From assembly GCA_023251835.1 (NCBI GenBank), contig JAHEXZ010000015.1, forward strand, positions 25,568 through 89,567: a DNA stretch of 64,000 nt, given 5' to 3'. This DNA is from Bacteroidota bacterium (lineage in GTDB: Bacteria > Bacteroidota > Bacteroidia > 2-12-FULL-35-15). Of this stretch, positions 3,653 through 47,619 are shown in pieces (the stretch's first letter is position 1; every line of letters starts with the position of its first letter). The translations under genes and the position numbers were made by a program. A model generated the notes under the pieces. The model had not been told where the DNA came from, searched no databases, and saw only the letters and a list, made by a program, of their open reading frames with translations.

Positions 3653-3729
3653 TTCGTCTGATATTAGAAAAAAGTAAATGGCAGACAAAGATTCGTAATT
3701 GGTTAAAATTCGTAATTCGTGGTATATAA

Positions 3730-4662
3730 ATGATAAAAGAAAGATTATATCTCCAACCTGAAACTGCTGAAGAAGCGGTTAGAATGGCACATCAATATGA
3801 AAGGGATTTTCGTTTTATTGCTGGTGGAACGGATGTTATTGTAAATAAATTCCAGGGGAATGATTCTACATCCTGCCTCATTGATATTACCGGAATAAAT
3901 GAGTTGAAACAGGTGATAAGAAATGGGAAGCATCTGAAAATAGGAGCTGTTGTTTCTTTGGAAGAACTATACAAACATATTGAAATTAAAAAAGAATTTC
4001 CAATACTGTCGGAGGCTGCCCGTGCGGTGGCTTCACCCGTAATACGCAAAACGGCTACTATAGGAGGTAATTTACTGTGTGAGAATCGTTGTGTGTTTTA
4101 TAATCAGAGTGAATGGTGGAGGGAGGCTGCGGGATATTGTCTGAAGTGCAGTGGTGATGTTTGTATTGCTACCGGAGGGAAGAAAAATTGTTTCTCAAAG
4201 TTTGTTTCGGATATGGCTGTGGCTCTTATTGCTCTGGATGCTTGTTTAGAGGTTGTAGAATATGGGGGAAGCTATATAATCCCCTTGGAAGATATTTATA
4301 CCGGTGATGGAGTAAAACCCCGGAGATTTAACAGAACATCTCTTATTAAAGCAATACATATACCGCTTCACAATGGCCAGCGTTCTGTATTTAAAAAGTT
4401 GCGTCAGCGCGAAAGCATAGAGTTCACTTCTCTTACAACTGTAGTATCGGTAAATAAATATGGAAAAATAAAAATTGTACTTGGCGGTGTTGATCCTAAG
4501 CCAATTATTGTTGAAGGAACGTCAGAGGCTAATGAGCAGGAACTTATCAGGCAGGCTGTGAAAAAGGCCAGGATAATCGATAATGATGTGTTCTCGCGGA
4601 AATACAGAAAGGAAATGGTAACTGTATTTTTAAACAACAGCTTTAAGGAACTAAAACAATAA
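3730..4662 (+). CDS. FAD-binding (CoxM/XdhB-type) subunit with a Cys-rich insertion, HcrB-like
   Basis: Contains FIAGGTDV and ATIGGNL FAD-subunit motifs. An insertion of about 38 aa with six Cys sits between GGNL and SDMAVAL. The gene is 78 nt downstream of the Mo subunit gene. Confidence 0.85.
   Translation: MIKERLYLQPETAEEAVRMAHQYERDFRFIAGGTDVIVNKFQGNDSTSCLIDITGINELKQVIRNGKHLKIGAVVSLEELYKHIEIKKEFPILSEAARAVASPVIRKTATIGGNLLCENRCVFYNQSEWWREAAGYCLKCSGDVCIATGGKKNCFSKFVSDMAVALIALDACLEVVEYGGSYIIPLEDIYTGDGVKPRRFNRTSLIKAIHIPLHNGQRSVFKKLRQRESIEFTSLTTVVSVNKYGKIKIVLGGVDPKPIIVEGTSEANEQELIRQAVKKARIIDNDVFSRKYRKEMVTVFLNNSFKELKQ
4078..4191 (+). other. Cys-rich insertion loop (C117,C121,C137,C140,C145,C154), putative extra [4Fe-4S] site
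   Basis: Sequence is LLCENRCVFYNQSEWWREAAGYCLKCSGDVCIATGGKKNC. The paralogous FAD subunit at 40394..41284 lacks it (GGNLCTASPSGDIACAL). Confidence 0.6.
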
Positions 4663-5906: not shown

Positions 5907-8900
5907 ATGGCAAACAAAGTAAAAATCATGGATGGCAATGAAGCTGCAGCTTATATTGCATATAAAACAAATGAAGTTTGTGCAATTTATCCGATTACAC
6001 CATCTTCGGCTATGGGTGAATTTTGCGATGAATGGTCGGCTGCCGGAATTAAAAATGTATTTGGCCAGGTTCCAAGAGTGATGGAGATGCAAAGTGAAGG
6101 TGGTGCTGCAGGAGCAGTACATGGTGCCTTACAAGGCGGTACTTTAGCTTCTACATTTACTTGTTCACAAGGATTATTGCTGATGATTCCCAATATGTAC
6201 AAAATTGCGGGTGAACTTACACCTGTCGTTTTCCATATTGCAGCACGTACTTTGGCAACACATGCACTATCCATTTTTGGAGATCATTCCGATGTTATGT
6301 CTGTTCGCCAAACCGGCTGGGCAATGTTATTTAGCCGTAATTCACAGGAAGCAATGGATATGGCTCTGATAGCGCAAGCCGCTACGTTGAAAACCCAGAT
6401 TCCGTTTTTGAATATTTTTGATGGTTTCAGAACTTCACATGAATTAACTAAAGTGGAAATAATACCAGATGAAGTTATTCTGGAAATGATAGACGAAGAT
6501 GAGCTACTTGCATTCAGAAAACGTGCTATGTCAACGGAGAATCCCTCTATCAGGGGGACTGCTCAAAATCCGGATGTGTTTTTTCAAAGTCGTGAAGCCG
6601 CTAATAAATATTATGCTGCTGCTCCCGGTATTGTTTCGGAAACAATGGAGAAGTTTGGGCAACTCACCGGCAGAAATTATAAACTTTACGAATATTATGG
6701 ACATGCAAACCCTGACAGAATAGTTATTATCATGGGATCAGGGGCAGGAGCTGTGAATGAAACTGCTAATTATTTGAATGAACAGGGAGAAGCTGTTGGA
6801 TACTTGTATATACGTTTGTTTCGGCCTGTAGATGTTAAAGAATTGATTCAAAATATTCCCGGATCAGTAAAAAATATTTGTGTGCTCGACCGTTGCAAAG
6901 AACCTGGAGCTATTGGAGATCCTTTGTATATGGATGTTATAAATAGTATAGCTGAAACATGGCAGGGTGAAAAACCTAAAGTTATTGCAGGACGCTATGG
7001 ACTTGCTTCTAAAGAGTTTACTCCTGCAATGGTAAAATCTATTTTTGATGAATTAAAAAAAGGTATCCCTAAAAATCATTTTACAATTGGGATCAATGAT
7101 GATGTAACACATACCAGTTTGGATTATGACAAAACATTCTCATTGGAGAAACAACATTTATTCAGGGGTTTGTTTTACGGATTGGGTGCAGATGGTACTG
7201 TAAGCGCAAATAAAAATTCTATAAAAATCATCGGGGAAACCACTACTAATTATGTGCAAGGCTATTTTGTGTATGACTCAAAAAAATCAGGTTCATTAAC
7301 TGTTTCACATTTACGCTTTGGAAAAAATCCTATTCAATCAACCTATTTAATTAACTCTGCCAATTTTATTGCCTGCCATCAGTTTAACTATATCAATAAA
7401 TATGACATTCTGAAAGATGCTGAAAAGGGTGCTACTTTTTTACTGAATACTCCATATACTATGGAGCAGGTATGGAATAAAATGCCTCAATATGTTCAGG
7501 AACAAATTATTTCCAAAGAACTAAAATTTTATGTTGTAAATGCCTCTAAAGTGGCACGTGAAACAGGTATGGGGTCGCGTATAAATACTATTTTACAGAC
7601 TTGTTTTTTTGCTGTTTCAGGAATACTTACAAGAGAAGATGCGATACAAAAAATAAAAGATGCTACCCAAAAAACATACGCTGCAAAAGGTGAAAAAGTA
7701 GTTCTTAAAAATTTTGAGGCAATTGATAAAACAATAGAAAATCTTCAGCAGATTGATTACTCAAAGTACACCGTAGGAACTGTCAAAACAGAAAAACTTG
7801 TTTCGGATAATGCCCCTGATTTTGTAAAAAATGTACTGGAAAAAATACTTTCTTTTGAAGGAGACAGTTTGCCTGTAAGTGCTTTTCCTGTGGATGGAAC
7901 ATACCCTGTTGGAACTACTCAGTATGAAAAAAGAAATATTGCTGATAAAGTACCTGTTTGGGATGAAGCGCTGTGTTCACAATGTGGTAAATGTTTTCTG
8001 ATTTGCCCGCATGCAGCCATACGCTGTAAAGTATATAACAAAGAGCATCTTGCCGGTACCCCGGAAACATTCAAACATGCGGCTCCTGTTGGTAAAGAAT
8101 TTGAAAAAGAAAAAGAAGCCTATACATTACAGGTTTCTGTAGAAGATTGTACTGGCTGTAATTTATGTGTTGAATATTGCCCAATGACAAGCAAAACGGA
8201 TGTTAAGCATAAGGCAATAAATATGCAGGAGCAACTGCCTTTGAAAAAAACTGAAATAAAAAATTGGGAATTCTTTTTGTCGATTCCCGAAATTGACCGT
8301 TCTCGCGTGAATAAGAATACAGTAAAGGGTACACAGTTGTTACAACCTTTATTTGAATTCTCAGGTGCATGTTCCGGTTGTGGCGAAACACCTTATGTAA
8401 AGCTCTTATCACAACTCTATGGCGACAGGATGGTGGTTGCAAATGCAACAGGATGCTCATCCATTTACGGTGGCAACCTGCCAACAACACCATGGACAGT
8501 CAATAAGGAAGGATACGGACCGGCATGGGCAAATTCATTGTTTGAAGACAATGCTGAATTTGGACTTGGAATAAAAATGGCGTATGATAAAAAAACAGAG
8601 ATTGCAAAAGCAATACTGGAAAACAATAAAGATAGTATTGGTGAAAGTTTTGTAAATGAACTATTAAATGCCGACCAAAGTTCAGAAGCAGGCATTCGTA
8701 AACAACACATGGCCATCAAAGAACTTCGTAATCGTATTACATCAATAAATAGTTTTGAGATGAAGCAATTGAACCTTGTTGCTGACCATCTTTTAAAAAA
8801 ATCACACTGGATTATTGGTGGCGATGGATGGGCTTATGACATTGGTTTTGGCGGTTTAGACCATGTGCTTTCGACAGGGGAGAATGTAAACATTATTGTA

Positions 8901-9434
8901 CTTGATACAGAAGTGTATTCCAATACGGGAGGACAAAAATCAAAGTCGACACCTATTGGTGCAAGTGCAAAATTTTCAGTAAACGGAAAAGAGAATTCGA
9001 AAAAGGATTTGGCATTACAGGCCATAGCACACGGTTCGGCATACGTTGCACAGATAGCAATGGGTGCAAATGATGCACATGCAATTAAAACTATACAGGA
9101 GGCAGAAGCCTTTCCGGGAACATCTATTGTAATAGCCTACAGCCATTGTATTGCTCATGGTTATGATATGGCAAATGGTGCGAATCAGCAGGAAAATGCT
9201 GTAAAATCAGGATATTGGCCGTTGTTCCGTTACAATCCGTTAAAGCCAAAAGGCGAACGTTTCTCATTGGATAGCAAAGAGTCGGCCTTGCCATTGAAAG
9301 ATTTTCTATACAATGAAACCCGCTTCAACACTTTGGTTCGTCAAAATGCGGAACACGCAGCTGATTTACTTTCAAGAGCGGAGAGCGGAGTAATCAGCCG
9401 TTGGGAACGTTTGCTGGCATTGAAGGCATTATAG
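5907..9434 (+). CDS. nifJ: Pyruvate:ferredoxin (flavodoxin) oxidoreductase, single-polypeptide type
   Basis: 1175 aa. It has two ferredoxin motifs (CSQCGKCFLICPHAAI and CTGCNLCVEYCP) and the TPP motif GGDGWAYDIGFGGLDH. The length and domain order are typical of NifJ/PFOR. Confidence 0.93.
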   Translation: MANKVKIMDGNEAAAYIAYKTNEVCAIYPITPSSAMGEFCDEWSAAGIKNVFGQVPRVMEMQSEGGAAGAVHGALQGGTLASTFTCSQGLLLMIPNMYKIAGELTPVVFHIAARTLATHALSIFGDHSDVMSVRQTGWAMLFSRNSQEAMDMALIAQAATLKTQIPFLNIFDGFRTSHELTKVEIIPDEVILEMIDEDELLAFRKRAMSTENPSIRGTAQNPDVFFQSREAANKYYAAAPGIVSETMEKFGQLTGRNYKLYEYYGHANPDRIVIIMGSGAGAVNETANYLNEQGEAVGYLYIRLFRPVDVKELIQNIPGSVKNICVLDRCKEPGAIGDPLYMDVINSIAETWQGEKPKVIAGRYGLASKEFTPAMVKSIFDELKKGIPKNHFTIGINDDVTHTSLDYDKTFSLEKQHLFRGLFYGLGADGTVSANKNSIKIIGETTTNYVQGYFVYDSKKSGSLTVSHLRFGKNPIQSTYLINSANFIACHQFNYINKYDILKDAEKGATFLLNTPYTMEQVWNKMPQYVQEQIISKELKFYVVNASKVARETGMGSRINTILQTCFFAVSGILTREDAIQKIKDATQKTYAAKGEKVVLKNFEAIDKTIENLQQIDYSKYTVGTVKTEKLVSDNAPDFVKNVLEKILSFEGDSLPVSAFPVDGTYPVGTTQYEKRNIADKVPVWDEALCSQCGKCFLICPHAAIRCKVYNKEHLAGTPETFKHAAPVGKEFEKEKEAYTLQVSVEDCTGCNLCVEYCPMTSKTDVKHKAINMQEQLPLKKTEIKNWEFFLSIPEIDRSRVNKNTVKGTQLLQPLFEFSGACSGCGETPYVKLLSQLYGDRMVVANATGCSSIYGGNLPTTPWTVNKEGYGPAWANSLFEDNAEFGLGIKMAYDKKTEIAKAILENNKDSIGESFVNELLNADQSSEAGIRKQHMAIKELRNRITSINSFEMKQLNLVADHLLKKSHWIIGGDGWAYDIGFGGLDHVLSTGENVNIIVLDTEVYSNTGGQKSKSTPIGASAKFSVNGKENSKKDLALQAIAHGSAYVAQIAMGANDAHAIKTIQEAEAFPGTSIVIAYSHCIAHGYDMANGANQQENAVKSGYWPLFRYNPLKPKGERFSLDSKESALPLKDFLYNETRFNTLVRQNAEHAADLLSRAESGVISRWERLLALKAL

Positions 9435-15309: not shown

Positions 15310-16008
15310 TTATCTTGCATCAGCATACCATTTTGCCAACAAGTGAGGCGAAACACCTGTCAGGTATAATTTTTTTATCAGAATCCATTGCATCCTCGTT
15401 TTGAAGAATCCTGTCTCGATGTGCCTTCGAGCTGAAACAATTAGTTTTGGAAATTTTATCTGCTTTACTTTGAACTGTTTTTTCATTCTGATAGAAAAAT
15501 CATAATCCTCCATGATTGGAATTTCTTTGAAGCCGTCTAATATTTCAAAAACATCTTTCTTTACAAATATTCCATTGTCGCCATAAAAAATACATCTGTC
15601 GGATTGTTCACGATTCCTGAAAAACCTAAAATTCAAAATTATTCCAAGCTGTTTTATTTTTTTGTTGTGCGAGTCAAACTCATTGGCGAACCCGCCACCG
15701 TCAAACCCATCTTTCAATTGATTGCATATAGCGGTAAGCGCTCCATCGGGTACAAACATATCTGCATGAACAAAAAAAAGAATGCTGCCTTTTGCGTGCT
15801 TGGCTCCCTCGTTCAACTGTTTCGCTTTTCCTTTTTCGCAATGAATCACTTTAGCGTATTTGCCTGCTATTTCAATTGTGGTATCTGTACTTCCCCCGTC
15901 AGCAACAATGATTTCTTTTTGTGATTTACAGGAAAGTTTATTCAGTTGAAGAAGTGTATTCTCAATAGAAGACGATTCATTGTATGTGGGGATGATTATG
16001 GAAATCAT
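15310..16008 (-). CDS. Family 2 glycosyltransferase, paralogue of the rSAM/selenodomain-associated transferase 2
   Basis: Contains ISIIIPTYNE, VADGGSTDTT, FVHADM, YGDNGIFV, IMEDYDF and SARR. The motif order matches ORF 21686..22375. Confidence 0.75.
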   Translation of the reverse strand: MISIIIPTYNESSSIENTLLQLNKLSCKSQKEIIVADGGSTDTTIEIAGKYAKVIHCEKGKAKQLNEGAKHAKGSILFFVHADMFVPDGALTAICNQLKDGFDGGGFANEFDSHNKKIKQLGIILNFRFFRNREQSDRCIFYGDNGIFVKKDVFEILDGFKEIPIMEDYDFSIRMKKQFKVKQIKFPKLIVSARRHIETGFFKTRMQWILIKKLYLTGVSPHLLAKWYADAR

Positions 16009-17390
16009 TCTTTAGTGCGTAAAAATCGTGTGAATGCCTTTTTTACAATTTCGGAATAAGTGGGGTAAGCAAAAATTGTATCGGCAAAATTTTCAGCGGG
16101 AATTTTATTGTTAATCGCTACAGTTAAGATTTGTATCCATTCTCCCGCATGCGCTCCAATTGCATCAGCGCCAATGACAAGATTTTTAGAATTAAAAATT
16201 ACTTTTAAAAACCCGATTGTATTTCTATCGGTAATAAAACGATCAATGTTTGCGTCCACTTTGAAAACTGAAATTTCATTTCCAAATTTTTCTCGCGCTT
16301 CTTTTTCGGATAAACCTACATGTGCTATTTCAGGTTCAGTAAAAATTGCCCAAGGCAGTGCGCTTAAATCATTTTCTTTTTTATTCCCATTCAGGATATT
16401 TTCAATTACACTATTTGCCTGATAGGACGCGGTGTGAGTGAATTTAGGATAAGTTGCAACATCTCCACAGGCATAAATATGGGGAGTGGATGTCTGCAAA
16501 TAGGAATTTGTTTTGATTCCATTTTCTGAAAATTCCACACCCGATTTTTCCAAATCAAGATCGAAAACATTTGGATGCCTACCAGCAGCAAGAAAAATAC
16601 TTTTGGCAGAAATTTCTTTTTCTTTTCCGTCTTGAAAATATGAAACAAAAGTTGTTGCTATTTCTTTTCTAACACCTTTCAACTCGGCTGAACAAATAAT
16701 TTTAATTTCTTCTTTTTTAAAAATGTCAATGATGATTTTGGCTGCATCATCGTCAACTGGTTTTAAAATTCTCGGATTACGGTCAAGGATGGTAACCTTG
16801 CTTCCGAAACGAGCAAGCGCCTGTCCGAGTTCAGCAGAGATTACTCCCCCGCCAATGAAAATAATTGATTCAGGAAGTTCTCGTATTGACCAGAAATTTT
16901 CATTGTGAAGAAACTCAACTTCTTTTCCCACCGAGACATTTACTTTTTGCGGTGATGAACCAGTGCAAATTACAGCGTATTTAAAATTCAAAACTTCATC
17001 ACCGATGGCAATATTATTTTTATCTAAAAATTTTGCTCCGCTGCTGTTCACATACACATCTATTCCCTGTTTCTCAAAAATGATAGGCGTTTCGTGTTTG
17101 TAAACTTCCTGAACAATGCTGTCAACCTGCTCCATAACAGTTGCAAAATTCAGTTTGCCAGAAACCTGTATTCCACCTAATCCGTAATTTTCTTTCAGAT
17201 GTTTTGTCACCTTATATATTTTTGCACTATGCAGAAACGCTTTGCTCGGAATACAACCGTAATGTGTACACTCTCCGCCAATTTTATTTTTTTCAAGCAA
17301 GGCAACTTTCAATCCTTTTCGGTTGGCAGTAGTAGCCGCAACCAATCCACCCGAACCTGCGCCAATCACAACTAAATCATACTTTTTCAT
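16005..17390 (-). CDS. Class I pyridine nucleotide-disulfide oxidoreductase (MerA/Lpd family) with Tyr replacing the dyad His
   Basis: Contains VVIGAGSGG and the redox-active GGECTHYGCIPSK. A second Rossmann motif is IFIGGGVISAE. The C-terminus reads FAYPTYSE where Lpd/GR have HPTxSE. Confidence 0.8.
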   Translation of the reverse strand: MKKYDLVVIGAGSGGLVAATTANRKGLKVALLEKNKIGGECTHYGCIPSKAFLHSAKIYKVTKHLKENYGLGGIQVSGKLNFATVMEQVDSIVQEVYKHETPIIFEKQGIDVYVNSSGAKFLDKNNIAIGDEVLNFKYAVICTGSSPQKVNVSVGKEVEFLHNENFWSIRELPESIIFIGGGVISAELGQALARFGSKVTILDRNPRILKPVDDDAAKIIIDIFKKEEIKIICSAELKGVRKEIATTFVSYFQDGKEKEISAKSIFLAAGRHPNVFDLDLEKSGVEFSENGIKTNSYLQTSTPHIYACGDVATYPKFTHTASYQANSVIENILNGNKKENDLSALPWAIFTEPEIAHVGLSEKEAREKFGNEISVFKVDANIDRFITDRNTIGFLKVIFNSKNLVIGADAIGAHAGEWIQILTVAINNKIPAENFADTIFAYPTYSEIVKKAFTRFLRTKE

Positions 17391-17473
17391 TTTGGGAATA
17401 ATTAAATATTTTCAGCAGAATTGCTTAAACCATTACAGCGCTTCTTTTTCATTCTTATATCAAAATAACTATG

Positions 17474-17495
17474 TTTTTGTGGAATTAGCAAAAAT
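17474..17495. promoter_or_regulatory. Palindromic motif TTTTTGTGGAATTAGCAAAAAT, copy 1
   Basis: Lies 84-105 nt upstream of the reductase start at 17390. It matches 20500-20521 at 21 of 22 positions. Confidence 0.45.
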
Positions 17496-17515
17496 TTAGT
17501 TGCTTTGGCATACCA

Positions 17516-17899
17516 TCAATGTATGCCATATAATAAAAGTTTTTGTTTTACAAGATTTATGAGCTCAGTAGTGGAAGAACTGTAATTGATTTCATCTGCT
17601 GTAATGATTTGCAAAGTTTTTAAACCATTTTTCCAAAACACCGCAGGAAATTTTTTCCTCTTGATGTTATAAGCATTTTCAAATTCATCTCTGTGAAAGA
17701 ACAGCGATTGTATTTTGAATGAAGAAATGAACTCTTTCCATTCTTTCTTCTCAGTAAAATTTCCGTATGACAGTTTGCATAAATTACAGTCATAAGTTTT
17801 CGGAGAAAGTATTTTGTGGGTGAAGTCAACGAGCGAATTATAGAATCCTTCATCAGCATTATAGACGAATATTAAAGCGTGTTCGGTATCATTTTTCAT
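17516..17899 (-). CDS. Small CxxC protein, possible thioredoxin/glutaredoxin-like fold
   Basis: 127 aa with a CNLC motif and FPAVFW (a cis-Pro-like element). Its start overlaps the stop of the upstream small ORF by 4 nt. Confidence 0.45.
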   Translation of the reverse strand: MKNDTEHALIFVYNADEGFYNSLVDFTHKILSPKTYDCNLCKLSYGNFTEKKEWKEFISSFKIQSLFFHRDEFENAYNIKRKKFPAVFWKNGLKTLQIITADEINYSSSTTELINLVKQKLLLYGIH

Positions 17900-18105
17900 T
17901 TTAACCCTAATTGTTTTCGCAAAAGAGAATCGGCAACAGAATCTTTCTTCCTGTAATCAGCGATAACAGTTTCTGATTTCGTTCCTTTGCTTGTAAGTAC
18001 GTTGCTTTTTGGCCGAAACCATCCCCCCCGTGCCCATGATCCGCCAGCATTTGAATAAATTGTGACCAAACAAAACATTAGTGCATAAAATAATTTTTCT
18101 TTCAT
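17896..18105 (-). CDS. Small secreted or membrane-anchored hypothetical protein (69 aa)
   Basis: The N-terminus is hydrophobic (FYALMFCLVTIYSNA). It is tightly packed between the methyltransferase and CxxC genes. Confidence 0.4.
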   Translation of the reverse strand: MKEKLFYALMFCLVTIYSNAGGSWARGGWFRPKSNVLTSKGTKSETVIADYRKKDSVADSLLRKQLGLK

Positions 18106-18114
18106 TAAAAAAAG

Positions 18115-19086
18115 TTAACAACAACCACCGCCATCATAAAACCAAGTTGATTCAGAAATAAAAATATCCTTTCTTCCGAGTGATTTCAAGGCATTGGCTG
18201 TTTTATCGCAGACAGAAAGTGGCTGATTGAAATTCAGAATATGACGTTTATTATCATCATAAAATCCTTTCGTTCCGAAATAAATCGCTGTTTTTCCAGT
18301 GAACACACAGGGTCCGTCATCAGGCATCGGGTCTTTAACAGCGCACACTTCCACACTTTCAATAAAAATATTTTTTAGAGTATCATAATTTTCTGGGTCA
18401 AGAATTCTGTAAGGGCGTTTCGCTCTTACTTCAACAGTTCCGAAACCTACATCGGTAATCATTTTTATGTATTCCTTCAACGGCATCGCTCCGCTTAAAC
18501 ACATTGCTCTCAATACCTCGTCATTCTTGAGAGAATCAGAAATATTATCTTCACAAACAGGGTCGGATAAAACTAATCTGCCATTCGGTTTAAGCACACG
18601 ATACATTTCCTTCAATGCTTTTTTCAAATCTTCTTGTTTGAAAATATTGAATAAACAATTTTGAGCGGCAACATCTATACTTTCATTTTCAATGGGCAGA
18701 TTCAATGCATCCCCCTTTCTTACATCAATAAATTCCGATTTAAACCAATTGTTTTGCTTCATTGCATCAAGGAAGTTACTTTTACAAGCATGAAGCATTT
18801 CATCTACTACATCTATTCCAATCACTCCATTTTTCTTCCTGCTGAAATAGGAGAATTGCAAAAGTTCCATTCCTCCTCCAACTCCAACATAGAGTATGGT
18901 TGGTTCATTCACTAAATCTCGCGGATGGACCGTGCTTCCACAGCCGTAATTCATTTCCAACATTTTTTTTGGAATTTTCAATCCCGGTAATTGCCATACT
19001 GGTGTCGTGGTGCAGCACAATCCTACATTGGGCGTTTCAGCCGCTTCTTTATAAACATTTTTTGCTGTTTCAAGATAGGTTTCCAT
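18115..19086 (-). CDS. arsM: ArsM-like SAM-dependent (metalloid) methyltransferase
   Basis: The N-terminus has an LCC pair and YGCGST. The SAM motif is VGVGGGMEL. QNCLFNIF, VLKPNGRLVLSD and RAMCLSGAM parallel the conserved ArsM Cys-containing blocks. The protein ends in GGGCC. Confidence 0.65.
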   Translation of the reverse strand: METYLETAKNVYKEAAETPNVGLCCTTTPVWQLPGLKIPKKMLEMNYGCGSTVHPRDLVNEPTILYVGVGGGMELLQFSYFSRKKNGVIGIDVVDEMLHACKSNFLDAMKQNNWFKSEFIDVRKGDALNLPIENESIDVAAQNCLFNIFKQEDLKKALKEMYRVLKPNGRLVLSDPVCEDNISDSLKNDEVLRAMCLSGAMPLKEYIKMITDVGFGTVEVRAKRPYRILDPENYDTLKNIFIESVEVCAVKDPMPDDGPCVFTGKTAIYFGTKGFYDDNKRHILNFNQPLSVCDKTANALKSLGRKDIFISESTWFYDGGGCC

Positions 19087-19088
19087 AT

Positions 19089-20198
19089 TTAAAAATTAAT
19101 TTTAGTTAGAAGTAAATAAATTAATGCACTTATAATTGCTGCAACAGGAAGTGTGAGTAGCCACGAAAGAAAAATTTCTGAAATAACTTTTGTGTTTGCC
19201 TTTTTTGTTATTGTCCCGATTCCAAATAACGAACCCACCGAAACGTGTGTGGTAGAAACCGGAAGCCCATTTACACTTGCTGTTGAAACAAGAAGCGCAG
19301 TTACAAGATTTGCTGTGAATCCTTGTCCGTGATTCATGGTAGTAATTTTTTTACTCATTGTTTCTCCCACTTTTTTTGCATTGAGTAAACCGCCAATGAC
19401 AATAGCAACAGCAACGGCTCCTGCTCCGATATGCACGTCAAGTGCAGTGATTAGAAGCAAAAGTCCAACCATCTTCGGTGTATCATTCACCCCCCTTGCA
19501 AAACTTACTGCGCCTGCGCTGATGAAATGAAAAGCATCTAAAATTTTCTGCGCTGAAATTCCAACGATAGTTCCATTGTATTGCTCTACACATTGATTAA
19601 CAGTCCCTATTTTTATTGCTATTGAATTTTCTGCAATCGCAGTTTTATCTCCAAAAGCGTAAACTTTTTGTTCCTGCACCACACAAGCACAGGATTCTTT
19701 TGTGATGCCTGATTTTTTTCTTGCTGAAGCGAAAACAAAATACAAGAACATACTTGCGACAGCAGCAATGAGTGGACTTAAAATGAGAGGGAGAAAAAAT
19801 GTTCCTCCGAGTTTTCCGAAATTAAATTGTGAACCAACTGCAATCAATCCGGCTCCTGTAAGCGCGCCTACCAATCCATGTGTAGTGGAAATAGGCATTC
19901 CTATTCTTGTAGCGAGAAAGACGGTGACCGCTGCACCGAGAGCAACTGCAATGGCAAACGAGGGAGAAGCAATCAGTGAATCGGGAACTAACCCTTTTCC
20001 TGAAAAATTTTTTACGAGAGATGAAGCAAGAAAAATAGAAGCCACCGAGCCGAGCAAAGTGGTAATAGTTGCCCAATTGATCGCCTTTTTGTAATCTGTT
20101 GTCCCGCTGCCGAATAAAGTGGCAACTCCTTTGAAGTTATCGTTTGCACCGTTGGAATAAGCGAGAAAGATAACAGCTGTGAAAATTAAAAATGGCAT
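19089..20198 (-). CDS. Inorganic phosphate transporter, PiT/PHO4 family
   Basis: Contains NGANDNFKGVATLFG and a second repeat, RGVNDTPKMVG. The protein is polytopic. I prefer the internal ATG at 20198, because the 23 extra N-terminal codons of the track ORF read through the trx remnant. Confidence 0.85.
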   Translation of the reverse strand: MPFLIFTAVIFLAYSNGANDNFKGVATLFGSGTTDYKKAINWATITTLLGSVASIFLASSLVKNFSGKGLVPDSLIASPSFAIAVALGAAVTVFLATRIGMPISTTHGLVGALTGAGLIAVGSQFNFGKLGGTFFLPLILSPLIAAVASMFLYFVFASARKKSGITKESCACVVQEQKVYAFGDKTAIAENSIAIKIGTVNQCVEQYNGTIVGISAQKILDAFHFISAGAVSFARGVNDTPKMVGLLLLITALDVHIGAGAVAVAIVIGGLLNAKKVGETMSKKITTMNHGQGFTANLVTALLVSTASVNGLPVSTTHVSVGSLFGIGTITKKANTKVISEIFLSWLLTLPVAAIISALIYLLLTKINF

Positions 20199-20229
20199 CG
20201 CATTATTTTTTAAGCATAAATTTGTGTAT

Positions 20230-20435
20230 TCAATACTGGCTGGAAATTTCCGGGTTGCCATCCACATTCAATTTCCCGATAACCACTTTCCCTTCGCATT
20301 CCTTTGAAAGTTCATCTACAATGGGACCAACCATTTGGCAAGAACCACACCATTCTGCCTAGAAATCTACCTATACCGGTTTTCTGATTTCATTACCACT
20401 TCATTGAAGTTGGTATCTGTTAATTCTGTTGACAT
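20230..20435 (-). pseudogene. trxA: Thioredoxin pseudogene (frameshift, two in-frame TAG codons, 3' truncation)
   Basis: Reads MSTELTDTNFNEVVMKSE, then a 1-nt shift, then [48 protein letters not shown]. The WCGxC active site is recognisable, and the last ~35 aa of a normal Trx are missing. Confidence 0.8.
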
Positions 20436-20499
20436 AGTTTTAATTTTTTTGATCACTAATTTTTCTTTTACAATGCTAAATTATACGAAAGGAACTAAT

Positions 20500-20521
20500 T
20501 TTTTGTGGAATTAACAAAAAT
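20500..20521. promoter_or_regulatory. Palindromic motif TTTTTGTGGAATTAACAAAAAT, copy 2
   Basis: Has perfect TTTTTGT-N7-ACAAAAA symmetry. It lies 65-86 nt upstream of the trx remnant start. Confidence 0.45.
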
Positions 20522-20584
20522 ATTTTGATAACTAATGGCGAGTTCTTATTTTTGAGATAAAAAAATGGGATAATTGTATTATCA

Positions 20585-20830
20585 AACAGCCGGAGAAATA
20601 TTTTCTAACCAGGCAAGAGACACTTGCAATCATCCTTGCTCATCGTCAGCAGAAGGATAAGAGTATAGCAGATAGACTAAAACAATCTTATTTTTAATAA
20701 GGGATTTAGTTATGTAGAAGTATCGGAGTTATTATTATTGGACGAGAATACCATACGTAACACATACGAAATTTTTGTTCGTGAAGGAAAAATTTTTCAA
20801 AACCTAAGTTGGTTTGGTATAGTTTACTGC
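20585..20830 (+). pseudogene. Degenerate helix-turn-helix remnant (IS630-like transposase N-terminus?)
   Basis: Two broken frames read ETLAIILAHRQQKDKSIADRLKQS and KGFSYVEVSELLLLDENTIRNTYEIFVREG. No intact ORF remains. Confidence 0.3.
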
Positions 20831-20872
20831 ACAATGAAAGAGTGTCAGATGAATGACATAGAGTTACATTTC

Positions 20873-21676
20873 CTAAATCGCATCCGCAAAAATCTTTGAT
20901 AATTTTTTATCAGCTTTTCCTGCAACTTCGATTATTTCCTCAATGCTTATGGGTTTTAGATTATCGGGGTCGCACTCATCTGTTATAACTGACACTGCCG
21001 CACATTGCAGTCCCAAATGGTTTGCAGCAATCACTTCGGGCACAGTGCTCATTCCTACCATATCTACCCCTATATTTTTCAGCATCCGATATTCAGCAGG
21101 GGTTTCCAACATGGGGCCCGCCACAGCTGCATAGACACCTTTTTTCAAAATCACTTTTTCAGATAAACCACATTTTTTCAATTGCTGTTGAAGTTCCAAT
21201 GAATAGGGCTGACTCATGTCGGGGAATCCCGGACCGAATGAATCTTCGTTTTTTCCGATAAGAGGATTCCCTGGAAGAAGATTGATATGGTCGTCAATCA
21301 AAACCAAATCTCCCTTTTTAAAATCTAAATTGATTCCACCTGCCGCGTTGGAAAGAAAAAGATTTTTCACGCCAAGCATTTTCATAACACGAATGGGAAA
21401 AACGATTTGCTGAAAAGAATATCCTTCGTAGAAATGAAATCTTCCCTGCATCGATATCACTTTCTTTTTTCCTATCTCACCATAAATTAAATTCCCCTTA
21501 TGAAATTCCACAGTTGAAACTGGGAAGTGGGGGATTTCAGAATAAGGAATAGTTGAAATAATTTTTAAATGAGTGATGAATTGGTTAAGCCCTGTGCCGA
21601 GAACAATTCCATAATCAGCATTCCCCATCCCCTTGCCTCTGAGAAAATTTTCTGTTTCTTTGATTTTTTCGTACAT
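20873..21676 (-). CDS. Purine nucleoside phosphorylase, PunA/MTAP (trimeric PNP) fold
   Basis: Contains GIVLGTGL, GRFHFYEGY, SNAAGGIN, VAGPMLETPAEYRML and GMSTVPEV. 267 aa. Confidence 0.85.
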   Translation of the reverse strand: MYEKIKETENFLRGKGMGNADYGIVLGTGLNQFITHLKIISTIPYSEIPHFPVSTVEFHKGNLIYGEIGKKKVISMQGRFHFYEGYSFQQIVFPIRVMKMLGVKNLFLSNAAGGINLDFKKGDLVLIDDHINLLPGNPLIGKNEDSFGPGFPDMSQPYSLELQQQLKKCGLSEKVILKKGVYAAVAGPMLETPAEYRMLKNIGVDMVGMSTVPEVIAANHLGLQCAAVSVITDECDPDNLKPISIEEIIEVAGKADKKLSKIFADAI

Positions 21677-21685
21677 ACAATTCTC

Positions 21686-22375
21686 TTATTGAATGTGATT
21701 CTGATAATACCTTACAATTTCCTCCTGTGAAAAACCGAGATAGTAAAGAATATTTATCACTGTATAATTCCATTGCAGGCGGAGCATCCCGTTCTTACGG
21801 TATCTTCTTGCTGATGTAACAACATAATCCGGTATAACGGAAAATTTTCCCTGTTTTGTAATTCTTCTCACAATATCATTATCTTCCATTATTTCCAGAT
21901 TAATGTCGAAGCCGTTTATTTTTCCAAACAAATCACGCTTCGCAAATAATGACTGGTCTCCGAAGCGACATAGATTATTATTGAACCTTGTGAACCAACT
22001 GAAAAATCTGAAGAAAGGATGTTTGCTGTCAAATTTCATTCTGAAACAACCGGCATCATTACCGTCTTTTATGGATTGAAGAATCCGCTCATCAAATTTT
22101 TTGGGTGGAATAGTATCCGCATGAAGAAAATAAAAAATGTCTCCCGTAGCAAGATTTGCTCCTGTATTCATTTGAAGTGCCCTGCCTCTTCGCTCTGTTA
22201 GAAAAACTTTTGCACCAGCCCGTTTCGCAATTTCAGCGGTGTTATCTCCGCTACAAGCATCCACAACAATAATTTCCTGAATATTTCTCTCGGAAGAATT
22301 ATTTTTCAAGGTATGAACAAGTTTTTCAATTCTCTCAGATTCGTGGCAAGTCGGTATGATAATGCTGATTTTCAT
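21686..22375 (-). CDS. Family 2 glycosyltransferase, TIGR04283-like (transferase 2, rSAM/selenodomain-associated)
   Basis: Contains ISIIIPTCHE, GRALQMNTGA, FLHADT, FGDQSLF, IMEDNDI and SARRYRKNG. Confidence 0.75.
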   Translation of the reverse strand: MKISIIIPTCHESERIEKLVHTLKNNSSERNIQEIIVVDACSGDNTAEIAKRAGAKVFLTERRGRALQMNTGANLATGDIFYFLHADTIPPKKFDERILQSIKDGNDAGCFRMKFDSKHPFFRFFSWFTRFNNNLCRFGDQSLFAKRDLFGKINGFDINLEIMEDNDIVRRITKQGKFSVIPDYVVTSARRYRKNGMLRLQWNYTVINILYYLGFSQEEIVRYYQNHIQ

Positions 22376-22989
22376 TTTTTTATTTGAATTTTTCCTAATT
22401 CACCGATGTTATCTTCTGTATCAATATCAGATAATGCAGGGAGCAAGTGATATTTCAGTTGTAATTTTTTAAGAATGTTAATACTGTCAAGCAAAACATT
22501 TTCCGTGCTCCAGGGAATATTTTCAAATAATTCTTTGTGGAGCGATTTCATTCCAAGAAGATAATATCCTCCGTCTATCGCTGGACCAATTACCACATCA
22601 TTATTATCGAGTGTTTCAAATGCTTTTTGAAGCATTTCTGTTTTCAATTCATGGCAATCTGTACCTATTATGAGAACCTTTTCATATTTATTTTGAAATT
22701 CAAAAGCAAAAGCATTTTTCATTCGCTCTCCTAAATCGCTTCCGTCTTGTACATATTTTTGATAAAAATCCTTGTCCCACATATCATTTTTGTCAATAAA
22801 ATCAGAATAGAAAATTGCTTTGTCGCAATTTTTTAATTGTGCGACAATATTTCCGGTATAGTGAAGAAGCATCTTATAAATTTGAAGTGCCTTCTCGTTT
22901 CCAATGCTTTTTGCAAGACGGGTTTTAACTTTCCCTTTGACAGGGTTTTTCATAAAAACCATAAGCAAGTATTTGTTTTTTTCTTTCAT
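22372..22989 (-). CDS. DUF2064 / TIGR04282-like (transferase 1, rSAM/selenodomain-associated; CofC/MobA-like nucleotidyltransferase fold)
   Basis: Contains VFMKNPVKGKVKTRLA, QDGSDLGERM, IIGTDCHEL, GPAIDGGYYLLGM, IPWSTENV and LSDIDTEDN. Confidence 0.75.
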   Translation of the reverse strand: MKEKNKYLLMVFMKNPVKGKVKTRLAKSIGNEKALQIYKMLLHYTGNIVAQLKNCDKAIFYSDFIDKNDMWDKDFYQKYVQDGSDLGERMKNAFAFEFQNKYEKVLIIGTDCHELKTEMLQKAFETLDNNDVVIGPAIDGGYYLLGMKSLHKELFENIPWSTENVLLDSINILKKLQLKYHLLPALSDIDTEDNIGELGKIQIKK

Positions 22990-22992
22990 CTT

Positions 22993-24039
22993 TTATTTTG
23001 TAATTGCTCCCTGACAACTTGAACCTGCCCCGGCAGTACATCCGAAACAATGCTGATTAACGATAATATTTCTTTCAGAAAGATTTTTGGTATTGAATTC
23101 GCTGATATGCTGAGGCGCATTTTTCTGAACTTTTAGTTCAAGCATCTGGTTAAAATCACAGTCGTATAAATATCCATCCCAACTGACTGAAATCGTATTT
23201 CTGCACATCACGCCTTGTGCGGCTGTTGCATTAAAAGCATTCACAAGCGTCTCCATATATTTTTCGTATTTCCCGAGCATGAGCAAGTAATCTAAAAACC
23301 TGCTGATAGGAAGATTGTTTATTGTATAAAGGTTATTAAAAGCGATTCCAAATTTTTCTCCAAGTTCATGTTTATAATCTGAGTGAAGTTTTTCCTGCGA
23401 ACCGGCTAACGAAGCTCCGATAGGATTAAAAACAAGATGTAACTCCAATCCTGTTTCTTCTTTTCCATAGCCAATTTTATTCAACATTTTTAACGATTCA
23501 ATCGAATGATTAAAAACTCCTTCTCCTCTTTGCTTATCTGTATTTTCTTTTGTGTAACATGGAAGAGAAGAAATCACAATTACTTTATGCTTTTTAAAAA
23601 ATTCAGGATACATTTTGAATTTTTTATTTGAAACAAGAATTGTGAGATTGCTTCGCACTATAATTTTTTTCCCGAGTTTGAAAATTTCCTCAACAAACCA
23701 TTGAAATCTTGGATTCATTTCAGGTGCGCCACCAGTTAAATCAATAGTATTCACCGAAGATTTCTTAATCGCTTCTAAACACAACTGCATTGTTTCGCGT
23801 GTCATAATTTCTTTTCGGTCAGGTCCTGCATCCACATGGCAATGCGCGCAGGTTTGATTGCACATTTTTCCAAGATTGATTTGCAGAATATCAAGAGAAA
23901 TTGGTTTTAAAGGATAAAGACCGATGTCTTTCAATTTTTCCGAAAAGGCAGGGACTAAAGCTTTGCTATCCTCAAGAATTGAAATTTGGTTCTCTGCAAC
24001 TGAGATTTTGTTGCCGCTTGATTTTAATGACTTTAACAT
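22993..24039 (-). CDS. arsS: Radical SAM/Cys-rich-domain protein, ArsS-like (TIGR04167 family)
   Basis: Contains CNQTCAHCHVDAGP (CxxxCxxC) and a C-terminal HCFGCTAGAGSSCQG Cys cluster. The track ORF starts at a TTG (24066), but the first ATG is at 24039. Confidence 0.75.
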   Translation of the reverse strand: MLKSLKSSGNKISVAENQISILEDSKALVPAFSEKLKDIGLYPLKPISLDILQINLGKMCNQTCAHCHVDAGPDRKEIMTRETMQLCLEAIKKSSVNTIDLTGGAPEMNPRFQWFVEEIFKLGKKIIVRSNLTILVSNKKFKMYPEFFKKHKVIVISSLPCYTKENTDKQRGEGVFNHSIESLKMLNKIGYGKEETGLELHLVFNPIGASLAGSQEKLHSDYKHELGEKFGIAFNNLYTINNLPISRFLDYLLMLGKYEKYMETLVNAFNATAAQGVMCRNTISVSWDGYLYDCDFNQMLELKVQKNAPQHISEFNTKNLSERNIIVNQHCFGCTAGAGSSCQGAITK

Positions 24040-24130
24040 AGTGTTGTTTTTATTTTCATAGTACAAAGTAATCTATTAGCAATGTATAGAAATGTCATTT
24101 TACGCGACAAACAAACTTTCGGATAGTTGT

Positions 24131-47088: not shown

Positions 47089-47619
47089 TTACTCTCTCGA
47101 AATTTTTTCAACTGCGTCAATAATTTTTACGTAACCCGTGCATCTGCACAAATTTCCTTCCAGCCATTTTTTAATTTCATCTCTTGTGGGGATTTCGGAT
47201 TTCGCCTTTCCGGTAGTCTTATGAGAATTCTCGTACCGATTCATCAATCCCTTAATCGACATTGCCATTCCTGATGTACAGAATCCACATTGTACCGCCC
47301 CATTTTGAACAAGTGCATGCTGCACTTCATCTAATGAACCATCGCTTTTTGTCAATCCTTCAATGGTTGTGATTTCTTTTCCGTTTGCATTCACGGCTAA
47401 AAATAAACAGGAGTTTATTGGAGCGCCATTCATAAGCACTGTACAGGCACCACATTCACCTTCATTGCAGCCCGGTTTTGTTCCTTTGAGTTCAAAAACA
47501 TCGCGAATCACATCCAGCAATACGGCTGAAGGTTTTACTTCACAGGAAACTTTTTTTCCGTTGAGCACGAATGAGATTTTATGCAGCGACCCATTTTCCT
47601 TTTTTATTTTCTGTACCAT
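47089..47619 (-). CDS. [2Fe-2S] small subunit (CoxS/XdhC-iron-sulfur type) of an XDH-family enzyme
   Basis: Contains CNEGECGACTV, QCGFCTSGM and NLCRCTGY. Confidence 0.88.
   Translation of the reverse strand: MVQKIKKENGSLHKISFVLNGKKVSCEVKPSAVLLDVIRDVFELKGTKPGCNEGECGACTVLMNGAPINSCLFLAVNANGKEITTIEGLTKSDGSLDEVQHALVQNGAVQCGFCTSGMAMSIKGLMNRYENSHKTTGKAKSEIPTRDEIKKWLEGNLCRCTGYVKIIDAVEKISRE

Follow-up and report, generated by a model that had tools for sequence, protein, structure and literature searches.

A partly eroded arsS gene cluster of a Bacteroidota bacterium and its candidate enzymes for the later steps of arsenosugar synthesis

Results

Four arsenosugar families lie in one co-directional gene string

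We analyzed a 64,000-nucleotide stretch of DNA from a Bacteroidota bacterium (GenBank assembly GCA_023251835.1, contig JAHEXZ010000015.1, positions 25,568 to 89,567; the whole stretch is called the window here), in which a putative arsenosugar-biosynthesis cluster with the genes arsS and arsM occupies positions 15310–24066. A sequence-only reading of the window had named ten open reading frames (ORFs) in this region, and all ten were found on the minus strand where it had placed them, running in the same direction. From arsS onward, they encode ArsS, a TIGR04282/DUF2064 protein, a family-2 glycosyltransferase (GT2a), a purine nucleoside phosphorylase (PNP), a PiT-family transporter, ArsM, a 69-residue product, a protein with a CxxC motif (CxxC protein), a pyridine-nucleotide disulfide oxidoreductase, and a second glycosyltransferase (GT2b). 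Within each block of genes, neighbors overlap by 4 nt or are separated by gaps of 2–9 nt; two wide spacers, of ~670 nt between the PNP and PiT genes and of 125 nt between the CxxC and reductase genes, split the string.

ArsS (22993–24039; this and all cluster features below are on the minus strand) has a radical S-adenosylmethionine (SAM) domain and a Cys-rich DUF3641 C-terminal domain. It scored 451.5 bits on the NCBIfam equivalog model TIGR04167, whose curated cut-off is 300, and matched the Pfam families PF04055 and PF12345 (the latter at 185 bits). The motifs CNQTCAHCH and CFGCTAGAGSSCQG, which had been quoted for this protein, were found in its translation, as were those quoted for ArsM. 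An alignment of 21 ArsS sequences showed no variation in either the CX3CX2C motif or the cysteines of the C terminus, and the GSS[C/U]QG motif carries Cys, not Sec, in the window. The extent previously given for the cluster stood as far as its ORF coordinates are concerned, except that ArsS likely starts at the ATG at 24039 rather than at the TTG at 24066, since its homologs have the resulting length of 348 residues. The protein is 100% identical to a 348-residue database entry (P0001); the ArsS and the PNP of the window are recorded elsewhere only in metagenome assemblies.

ArsM (18115–19086), an arsenosugar-type arsenite SAM methyltransferase, scored 559.2 bits on the arsenosugar-specific model NF038099 (cut-off, 400), covering profile positions 1–321 of 321, and matched several Methyltransf Pfam domains of the class-I SAM methyltransferase fold. 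Its translation contains the cysteine blocks LCC, YGCG, QNC, and MCLSGA and ends in GGGCC; we take these cysteines to be equivalent to those of CmArsM. The TIGR04282 protein (22372–22989) scored 220.2 bits on the NCBIfam model of that name (cut-off, 134) and 117.9 bits on PF09837, and GT2a (21686–22375) and GT2b (15310–16008) scored 241.8 and 196.5 bits, respectively, on TIGR04283 (cut-off, 182). The assignment of an ArsS/ArsM/DUF2064/GT2 core in the sequence-only reading was thus borne out by the profile searches that it had proposed, all four families lying above their NCBIfam cut-offs. Four curated arsenosugar families, tightly packed and co-directional, cannot have come together by chance.

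A PNP is the strongest addition to the core set

ORFs were clustered de novo in 83 ArsS loci, namely 80, nearly all of them from Bacteroidota, found in a scan that covered each species by a single genome, together with two close relatives of the window cluster (L081 and L082) and the window itself. Loci were fetched up to 10 kb on each side of arsS, and the family counts are lower bounds since many contigs are short. The closest ArsS in the genome set, 77% identical to that of the window, belongs to a Saprospiraceae metagenome-assembled genome (MAG; L001), so that the source of the window is probably a Saprospiraceae-like member of the Bacteroidota. The family found most often was TIGR04169, whose "peroxidase-like" (AhpD-like) gene lies directly upstream of ArsS in 65/83 loci. 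It was followed by TIGR04282 (55/83), ArsM (33/83), PNP (32/83), and TIGR04283 GT2s (30/83), by DUF547 and a rhodanese of family NF045521 (21/83 each), and by an FAD oxidoreductase different from the class-I reductase of the window (14/83) and a fatty-acid-hydroxylase-like protein (12/83). PiT was present in 7/83 loci, the CxxC protein in 6/83, and the class-I reductase in 4/83.

The PNP is the strongest addition to the core set. It immediately adjoins TIGR04282 in 26 of the 32 loci that have it, and this in several gene orders: ArsS-PNP-TIGR04282 in Parafilimonas, Chryseolinea, and Flavisolibacter, TIGR04282-PNP in Flavobacteriales and L081, and TIGR04282-GT2-PNP in the window and L082. In some Chitinophagaceae, the PNP gene is divergent and upstream of ArsS. 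Moreover, when PNP homologs were picked only for their long contigs (P0246, P0254, and P0252), all three proved to lie in ArsS clusters.

The remaining genes also recur beside arsS. The PiT gene adjoins ArsM, on either side, in six of the seven PiT loci (L001, L053, L054, L081, L082, and the window) and is ~2 kb away in L007; its product is 56–85% identical to that of the window across the seven clustered loci, and PiT adjoins ArsM in a further relative, L090, as well. Cluster-linked copies of the CxxC gene were found in L015, L054, L056, L081, L082 (two copies), L086, and L090, lying between TIGR04282 and a GT2 gene in L015, L056, and L086. The class-I reductase gene has a TIGR04283 GT2 gene as its neighbor in the window and at L001, L026, L041, L086, and L089, six loci in all, and the second type of GT2 was found again in L001 and L086. 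The last of these, the cultured Flavisolibacter nicotianae, has in order genes for an AhpD-like protein, ArsS, ArsM, PNP, TIGR04282, a CxxC protein (47% identity), a GT2a-type enzyme (47%), a GT2b-type enzyme (59%), and a class-I reductase, so that the extra genes, PiT excepted, are found again side by side in a cultured bacterium from a different family. These results agree with the earlier proposal that the additional genes belong with arsS, most strongly for the PNP. They do not support a gene set special to the window, since the same set is present in public genomes, including that of the cultured Flavisolibacter, and NCBIfam already curates arsenosugar families.

Two further gene arrangements were observed in the fetched loci. 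Flavobacteriales (L020, L024, L035, L048, L050, L052, L055, L061, L065, L068, L071, L075–L077, and L080) share a longer conserved layout, in which genes for an AhpD-like protein, ArsS, the rhodanese (NF045521), TIGR04282, PNP, ArsM, a fatty-acid-hydroxylase/OlsE-like protein, DUF547, and a GT2 are followed further downstream by a glycoside-hydrolase-like gene, a gene for a CoA-disulfide-reductase-like FAD enzyme, one for a NapH-like 4Fe-4S membrane protein, and two more GT2 genes. This layout may point to products attached to lipids and to a redox partner in the membrane. In addition, a gene for a ~356-residue protein with a weak FMN_red Pfam match, not present in the window, adjoins a GT2 or ArsM gene at L086 13686–14759, L087 10134–11204, and L089 12928–13998.

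The cluster PNPs have a modified nucleoside pocket

The PNP of the window (20873–21676) is of the trimeric, PunA type and represents a discrete subtype of these enzymes. It scored 338.7 bits on NF006054 (cut-off, 218) and passed TIGR01700, the model of inosine/guanosine-specific PNPs (301.5 bits; cut-off, 293.35), and it failed the MTAP model TIGR01694 (91.5 bits; cut-off, 274.85). To number its residues, we aligned the PNPs to the human PNP sequence, and the alignment reproduced the textbook active-site residues. The phosphate-site residues S/T33, H64, R84, H86, Y88, A116, and S220 are conserved in all 32 arsS-linked PNPs. All 32 also carry Asp at the position of human Asn243 and Leu at that of Phe200, and the position of His257 is taken by Ile in 31 of them and by Leu in one; the window enzyme has Asp, Leu, and Ile, respectively. 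Among the 120 best PNP homologs, every one has the motif TD..[DN]P..L, with Ile as the final residue in 118 and Val in 2. The comparison was extended to the 135 closest representatives from further 50%-identity PNP clusters, of which no full-length one exceeds ~53% identity. The canonical Asn and His are retained in 58 of them, and Asp occurs alongside an aliphatic residue in just 23.

In human PNP, Asn243 selects 6-oxopurines, and an Asn243Asp mutant prefers adenine nucleosides; His257 contacts the 5′-hydroxyl group. Because of the Asp243 and aliphatic-257 pocket changes, the cluster PNP looks like a subtype built for an adenosine with a non-hydroxyl 5′ position, as in DDMAA (5′-deoxy-5′-dimethylarsinoyl-adenosine), which ArsS forms. 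The Asn243-to-Asp change alone was rejected as a marker of the cluster, since the solved bacterial PNPs 4lna, 4m1e, and 8swt share it. The only informative signal is Asp with an aliphatic residue 257, taken together with the gene context.

The TIGR04282 protein resembles CofC, and the two GT2s are distant paralogs

The TIGR04282 protein appears to have a CofC-like nucleotidyltransferase fold. It weakly matched CofC in both TIGR03552 (3.5e-6; 26.8 bits against a cut-off of 105) and Pfam (4.7e-9), and it contains an N-terminal K-x-P-x-x-G-x-V-K-T-R-L segment. Its closest entry in the PDB, and its only solved relative, is 3cgx (5.9e-30), an uncharacterized structural-genomics entry named "putative nucleotide-diphospho-sugar transferase".

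Of the two TIGR04283-family enzymes, GT2a is weakly similar to glucosyl-3-phosphoglycerate synthase and MftF, and it is 82% identical to its L082 ortholog and 43–50% identical to most others. GT2b is only 35% identical to GT2a. It is 77% identical to its L001 counterpart and 59% identical to the second GT2 of the Flavisolibacter locus L086, and it belongs to a deep branch shared with L001 and L086.

A short PiT transporter and redox proteins accompany ArsM

The transporter gene (19089–20198) lies directly upstream of arsM, with a likely start at 20198, judging from its homologs. The 369-residue product, a short member of the PiT (PHO4) family, scored 211.5 bits on PF01384 over profile positions 1–350 of 350 and failed the specificity models for PitA (68.4 bits; cut-off, 800) and CysP (75.8 bits; cut-off, 400). 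Arsenate is a candidate substrate, and its import for ArsM is plausible since the two genes adjoin each other, but no arsenate reductase gene was found close to the cluster.

The reductase (16005–17390; 461 residues) is a class-I pyridine-nucleotide disulfide oxidoreductase with FAD, NAD(P), and dimerization domains and a redox-active CxxxxC motif. It scored below every NCBIfam cut-off, including those of NF004991 (418 against 620 bits), lipoamide dehydrogenase TIGR01350 (364.6 against 408.8 bits), and MerA TIGR02053 (337.9 against 454.45 bits). Tyr stands in place of the catalytic His (FAYPT, aligned with HAHPT of 1ebd), a change also found in L001, L026, and L041; MerA, too, has Tyr in this position. 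The C terminus (...FTRFLRTKE) has no Cys pair, and there is no N-terminal extension or NmerA domain. The description of this enzyme as MerA-like therefore stood only as a resemblance, and its identification as MerA was rejected on the score, the missing NmerA domain, and the missing Cys pair. Lipoamide dehydrogenase was likewise rejected, because the score is under the cut-off and the catalytic His is absent. A part of this enzyme in arsenate reduction would be conjecture, as would arsenate uptake by PiT. The reductases fall into two groups, that of the window and L001 and that of L026 and L041, which are only ~30% identical to each other.

The CxxC protein (17516–17899; 127 residues) belongs to a Bacteroidota-only family for which there is no Pfam model, and it gave no sequence match in Pfam, NCBIfam, or the PDB. 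Cys-38 and Cys-41 are invariant across the 59 homolog clusters of the family. An AlphaFold2 model of the protein had a pLDDT of 78, and the PDB folds most similar to it were nearly all thioredoxin folds, none of them significant (best E value, 0.014; TM scores, 0.4–0.5); the protein probably has a thioredoxin-like fold. The family as a whole was rejected as arsenic-specific, since members of 40–43% identity stand beside gldB-gldC and a GTPase gene. In the Flavobacteriaceae loci L083 (10001–10372) and L084 (10001–10357), these distant members lie between gldB-gldC and a convergent gene for a GTPase with an MMR_HSR1 domain. At NCBI, several members of the family bear the name "GTPase"; a GTPase domain is absent from the family, and the name is probably a transferred misannotation.

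Since the closest relatives of the cluster additionally have genes for thioredoxin, an AhpD-like protein, peroxiredoxin, and superoxide dismutase (SOD), the reductase and the CxxC protein appear to point to a need for trivalent arsenic and for reduced ArsM cysteines.

The window copy is partly eroded

Three contigs (L081, L082, and L090), with ArsS identities of 75–81%, share a common layout with which the window was compared. A divergent Crp/Fnr regulator gene is followed by genes for ArsS, TIGR04282, in some cases a GT2, PNP, thioredoxin, PiT, and ArsM; downstream of ArsM come, after an outer-membrane protein and others in some cases, a ~303-residue lipoprotein, the CxxC protein, an AhpD/CMD protein, in some cases SOD, and peroxiredoxin. 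In the window, tblastn mapped thioredoxin residues 1–18 to 20435–20382 and residues 19–68, in a different frame, to 20382–20233, and residues 69–107 were absent. Relative to the intact 107-residue thioredoxin genes of L081 and L082, alignment of the DNA identified a 1-nt deletion, a TGG-to-TAG change, and the loss of ~96 nt at the 3′ end. An intact thioredoxin gene lies at the same position in L081, L082, and L090, and the L082 ortholog scored 135 bits on TIGR01068 (cut-off, 96.8). The window sequence at 20233–20435, with its in-frame TAG stops and frameshift, is therefore a thioredoxin pseudogene, which the earlier gene inventory had overlooked.

The 69-residue ORF (17896–18105), previously taken for a small secreted protein, turned out to be a deletion scar and not a conserved gene. 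By tblastn, it matched the C-terminal 65 residues of a 303-residue protein in L082 and of a 310-residue protein in L081. Its last 40 residues aligned with residues 264–303 of the 303-residue lipoprotein (score, 132), and its residues 6–27 aligned with residues 9–30 of the 278-residue outer-membrane-type protein encoded after ArsM in L082, with a score of 51 that none of 500 shuffles reached. Together with the DNA alignment, these matches identify the ORF as an in-frame fusion of an outer-membrane-type N terminus with the last ~40 codons of the ~303-residue lipoprotein gene, ~2.9 kb downstream of arsM having been removed in frame relative to L082.

Other parts of the common layout are missing altogether. 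No match to the AhpD-like family TIGR04169 was found in the 64-kb window by tblastn at E values up to 0.01, nor to the 185-residue CMD protein of L082, and the Crp/Fnr regulator gene that stands beside arsS in L081, L082, and L090 is absent from the window cluster. Conversely, full-length alignments demonstrated that the nine enzyme and transporter genes of the cluster are all full length compared with those of the relatives. Together, these results show that the window copy is partly eroded relative to its closest relatives.

Two other observations concern the evolution of such loci. In L001, TIGR04282 and PNP are present only as short ORF fragments of ~120 and ~89 residues (6268–6627 and 7607–7873), and the PiT, ArsM, reductase, and GT2b genes are intact; either the assembly is at fault there or this cluster was eroded independently in that MAG. 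Xanthine-dehydrogenase-family genes (Fer2/MoCoBD and FAD_binding_5) at window positions 836–4662 are 74% and 63% identical to those at L081 1417–5695, which lie directly upstream of the Crp regulator gene and arsS. The region is thus rearranged, since the window copies are ~18 kb from the near end of the cluster and on the opposite strand.

Spacers and surroundings of the cluster

The spacer between the PNP gene and the thioredoxin remnant (20436–20872) measures 437 nt in the window, compared with ~75 nt in L082 and ~32 nt in L081. The ~360 nt of extra sequence at 20521–20872 resembled none of the fetched loci or proteins, gave no Rfam match, and had no counterpart in L081 or L082. This spacer contains one copy (20500–20520) of a 21-nt element, TTTTTG[C/T]TAATTCCACAAAAA, with the palindromic arms TTTTTG and CAAAAA. 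The second copy, TTTTTGYTAATTCCACAAAAA, lies at 17474–17494, within the 125 nt that precede the reductase gene. Exactly two copies are present in the 64-kb window, where 0.02 were expected, and both stand in the large spacers of the cluster, one upstream of the block with the thioredoxin remnant, PiT, and arsM and the other upstream of the reductase/GT2b block. Each is part of a 41-nt repeat of 83% identity, whose copy in the shorter spacer spans 17455–17495. Apart from this repeat and its end next to the PNP gene, the 437-nt spacer resembled no other sequence. The element may be a duplicated promoter or operator. It was not retained as a conserved operator, since it is absent from L001, L081, and L082 and conservation is not demonstrable.

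An Rfam search gave no RNA family in the whole window at the gathering threshold or in the cluster at E values up to 1, and thus no riboswitch in the PNP/PiT gap or the other spacers. A scan for promoters and terminators, which was not designed for Bacteroidota promoters, remained at the level of shuffled sequence (36 against 32.7 promoter-like and 4 against 6.5 terminator-like hits). The cluster had been described as an island; its GC content of 0.35–0.39, the same as in the flanks and the rest of the window, rules out a compositional one. The flanking genes encode a Fib_succ_major lipoprotein, a DUF892 protein, an O-methyltransferase, an ABC-F protein, a protein sorted by the type IX secretion system, and an unannotated 803-residue protein. 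The boundaries of the cluster stand because none of these is an ars gene, and no ArsC, ArsR, or efflux gene was found in or beside the cluster.

Elsewhere in the window, a 1175-residue ORF (5907–9434) is of the pyruvate:ferredoxin-oxidoreductase type according to Pfam, a 1149-residue ORF (48297–51746) is unannotated, and tblastn matches at 41304–43583 and 47092–47586 represent homologs of molybdopterin enzymes. The pyruvate:ferredoxin-oxidoreductase-type and molybdopterin genes may indicate life at low oxygen, conditions that would suit a radical SAM pathway sensitive to oxygen.

Discussion

We consider it probable, at roughly 0.65, that the region is a single co-directional arsenosugar-biosynthesis cluster in which the PNP, the TIGR04282 protein, and the GT2s carry out the steps after ArsS. 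In such a pathway, ArsM would methylate As(III) to dimethylarsenite (DMAs(III)), and ArsS would attach SAM's deoxyadenosyl group to DMAs(III), yielding DDMAA. The cluster PNP would then phosphorolyze DDMAA, removing adenine and leaving α-5-deoxy-5-dimethylarsinoyl-ribose-1-phosphate, which the CofC-like TIGR04282 protein could nucleotidylate to a nucleoside diphosphate (NDP)-arsenoribose. The TIGR04283 GT2s, members of an inverting family, would pass the arsenoribose to glycerol-type or other acceptors as β-ribosides, and the paralogs GT2a and GT2b may use different acceptors. PiT probably imports the oxyanion, and the CxxC protein and the His-less flavoprotein reductase probably hold arsenic and the ArsM cysteines in a reduced state. 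PNPs invert the anomeric configuration, nucleotidyltransferases retain it, and GT2 enzymes invert it; by this textbook enzymology, the predicted product would therefore be β, matching natural arsenosugars, which are β-ribofuranosides.

Several points weigh against this interpretation. NDP-ribofuranose donors are, to our knowledge, rare in biology, and the name given to TIGR04282 in NCBIfam is that of a glycosyltransferase rather than of a nucleotidyltransferase. The Asp at the Asn243 position, being present in the solved PNPs mentioned above, is not diagnostic alone. No PNP gene was found within 10 kb of arsS in 51 of the 83 loci, many of which are on short contigs and some of which are not, and only few loci link arsS to PiT, to the CxxC protein, or to the reductase. 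ArsC, ArsR, and efflux genes, as noted above, were not found in or next to the cluster. Furthermore, the loss of thioredoxin and of the AhpD-like gene may mean that the pathway is impaired in the source organism.

The low frequency of the accessory genes (PiT in 7, CxxC in 6, and the class-I reductase in 4 of the 83 loci) could also mean that the four curated core genes alone constitute the pathway, with PiT, the CxxC protein, the reductase, and GT2b as lineage-specific bystanders engaged in redox or phosphate housekeeping. The gldB-gldC/EngB housekeeping context of distant CxxC members would fit this, as would the ~30% identity between the reductases of the window and L001 and those of L026 and L041. 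Against it, each extra gene recurs across lineages and gene orders, as exemplified by PiT on either side of ArsM, by CxxC between TIGR04282 and GT2 in three loci, and by the reductase beside a TIGR04283 GT2 in six; the genes within the blocks are, moreover, only 2–9 nt apart or overlap by 4 nt. We regard a bystander role as unlikely.

An assignment of the PNP to arsenate reduction is improbable. PiT would import arsenate, and arsenolysis by the PNP would yield ribose-1-arsenate, from which a dithiol (thioredoxin, the CxxC protein, or a thiol that the flavoprotein regenerates) would release As(III) for ArsM. The order PNP-thioredoxin-PiT-ArsM in the closest relatives and the absence of ArsC in or near the cluster are in line with this scheme. 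So is the reduction of arsenate by mammalian PNP with a dithiol in vitro, as summarized in the passage of PMC12608789 that cites Gregus & Nemeti 2002 and Radabaugh et al. 2002, where the relevance in vivo is described as uncertain even in mammals. Such a device would not need pocket changes, yet all linked PNPs have altered positions 243, 257, and 200. In addition, the steady neighbor of the PNP is TIGR04282 (26/32), not ArsM, thioredoxin, or PiT, and most PNP-bearing clusters are without thioredoxin or PiT.

It is no more probable that the PNP scavenges 5′-deoxyadenosine or methylthioadenosine arising from abortive SAM cleavage and thereby relieves product inhibition of ArsS. Radical SAM enzymes are commonly inhibited by 5′-deoxyadenosine, and the Asp243/aliphatic-257 pocket suits 5′-deoxy or 5′-substituted adenosines generally. 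However, ArsS adds the deoxyadenosyl radical to arsenic, so that little 5′-deoxyadenosine is expected (PMC13598754). A scavenging role also leaves the adjacency of PNP and TIGR04282 across gene orders unexplained, and the cluster contains no salvage genes such as those for an isomerase or an aldolase.

That the locus has lost its function and is decaying in its source genome has to be considered in view of the thioredoxin pseudogene, the ~2.9-kb deletion scar, and the missing Crp/Fnr regulator and AhpD-like genes, the latter present in 65/83 loci elsewhere; the related MAG L001, too, has only fragments of PNP and TIGR04282. Nevertheless, none of the nine ORFs for enzymes and the transporter is shortened relative to its homologs, their catalytic motifs are kept, and the losses all concern accessory genes, which makes complete decay quite improbable. 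A pathway for selenium, tellurium, or another element, or for a product other than an arsenosugar, is very improbable: the TIGRFAMs grouping originally came from co-occurrence alone, and no experimentally tested Bacteroidota cluster was found in open-access papers and bioRxiv, but ArsM scored 559 bits on an arsenosugar-specific model, ArsS passes an equivalog model, and the characterized ArsS acts on DMAs(III) (PMC13598754).

The reading of the region as an arsenosugar cluster bears on steps for which the literature has so far drawn hypothetical enzymes. In the open-access literature consulted, enzymes are assigned only to the first steps, by ArsM and by ArsS, which adenosylates DMAs(III) with SAM to give DDMAA (PMC13598754). 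Adenine removal and glycosidation are left to a hypothetical "adenosyl nucleosidase" and then a hypothetical synthase in a 2023 review, and a preprint states that DDMAA's adenine can afterwards be taken off, without naming the enzyme (bioRxiv 10.64898/2026.04.29.721666). Our search of open-access papers and bioRxiv, which did not extend to subscription papers, found none that links a phosphorylase, DUF2064, or the TIGR04283 GT2s to ArsS, experimentally or bioinformatically. The candidates for the later steps would be the specialized phosphorylase, the TIGR04282 protein that it almost always abuts, and one or two GT2s. These candidate enzymes are soluble, and the proposal is thus directly testable.

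In marine food webs, arsenosugars are the predominant form of organic arsenic. A tentative generalization, for which the odds are somewhat below even, is that the arsS clusters of Bacteroidota encode the second half of arsenosugar synthesis, with a dedicated DDMAA phosphorylase, an unprecedented NDP-5-deoxy-5-dimethylarsinoyl-ribofuranose intermediate, an aglycone set by the GT2s, and deliberate arsenic uptake by the PiT encoded beside arsM. If so, arsenic would be taken up for biosynthesis and not merely detoxified. The window represents one eroded example; the cultured Flavisolibacter and many flavobacteria carry the same gene set and are better experimental starting points.

The individual proteins of the cluster can be compared with characterized enzymes. 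The PNP keeps the fold and the phosphate-binding residues of human PNP, bacterial PunA, and MTAP; its Asp243, Ile257, and Leu200 resemble those of MTAP-like enzymes that accept adenine and tolerate 5′ substituents, although it is far from the MTAP cut-off. CofC, a 2-phospho-L-lactate guanylyltransferase with MobA-like relatives, adds a nucleoside monophosphate to a phosphate monoester, which is the chemistry that our model requires of the TIGR04282 protein. The latter is far under the CofC cut-off, and its only recognizable relatives are CofC-type nucleotidyltransferases and 3cgx. The window reductase has its domains and its CxxxxC motif in common with MerA, dihydrolipoamide dehydrogenase, and the class-I disulfide reductases. 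The arsenate reduction by mammalian PNP has a parallel in the window, where a PNP gene in an arsenic pathway is accompanied by genes for thiol-redox proteins and for an oxyanion transporter. That reduction is, however, a side reaction of an ordinary PNP, whereas the window enzyme is a specialized subtype linked to a nucleotidyltransferase-like gene.

As a whole, the cluster falls within the arsenosugar neighborhood that NCBIfam curates with TIGR04167, TIGR04169, TIGR04282, TIGR04283, NF038099, and NF045521. The window has TIGR04167, TIGR04282, TIGR04283 (twice), and NF038099, and it lacks TIGR04169 (65/83 loci) and the rhodanese NF045521 (21/83); its PNP, PiT, CxxC protein, and class-I reductase have no arsenosugar-specific curated model there. 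For Synechocystis sp. PCC 6803, an ArsM/ArsS arsenosugar pathway was reportedly established by Xue et al. in 2019. The ArsM and ArsS families are the same in the window, where both proteins pass equivalog/exception-level profiles, and the conversion of As(III) to DMAs(III) and on to DDMAA is thus expected here. The window differs from Synechocystis by its heterotrophic Bacteroidota context and by carrying these genes in one string with a PNP, a TIGR04282 protein, two GT2s, PiT, and redox genes. Systems of this kind are already known and curated, and the window contains a lineage-specific, partly eroded variant of it.

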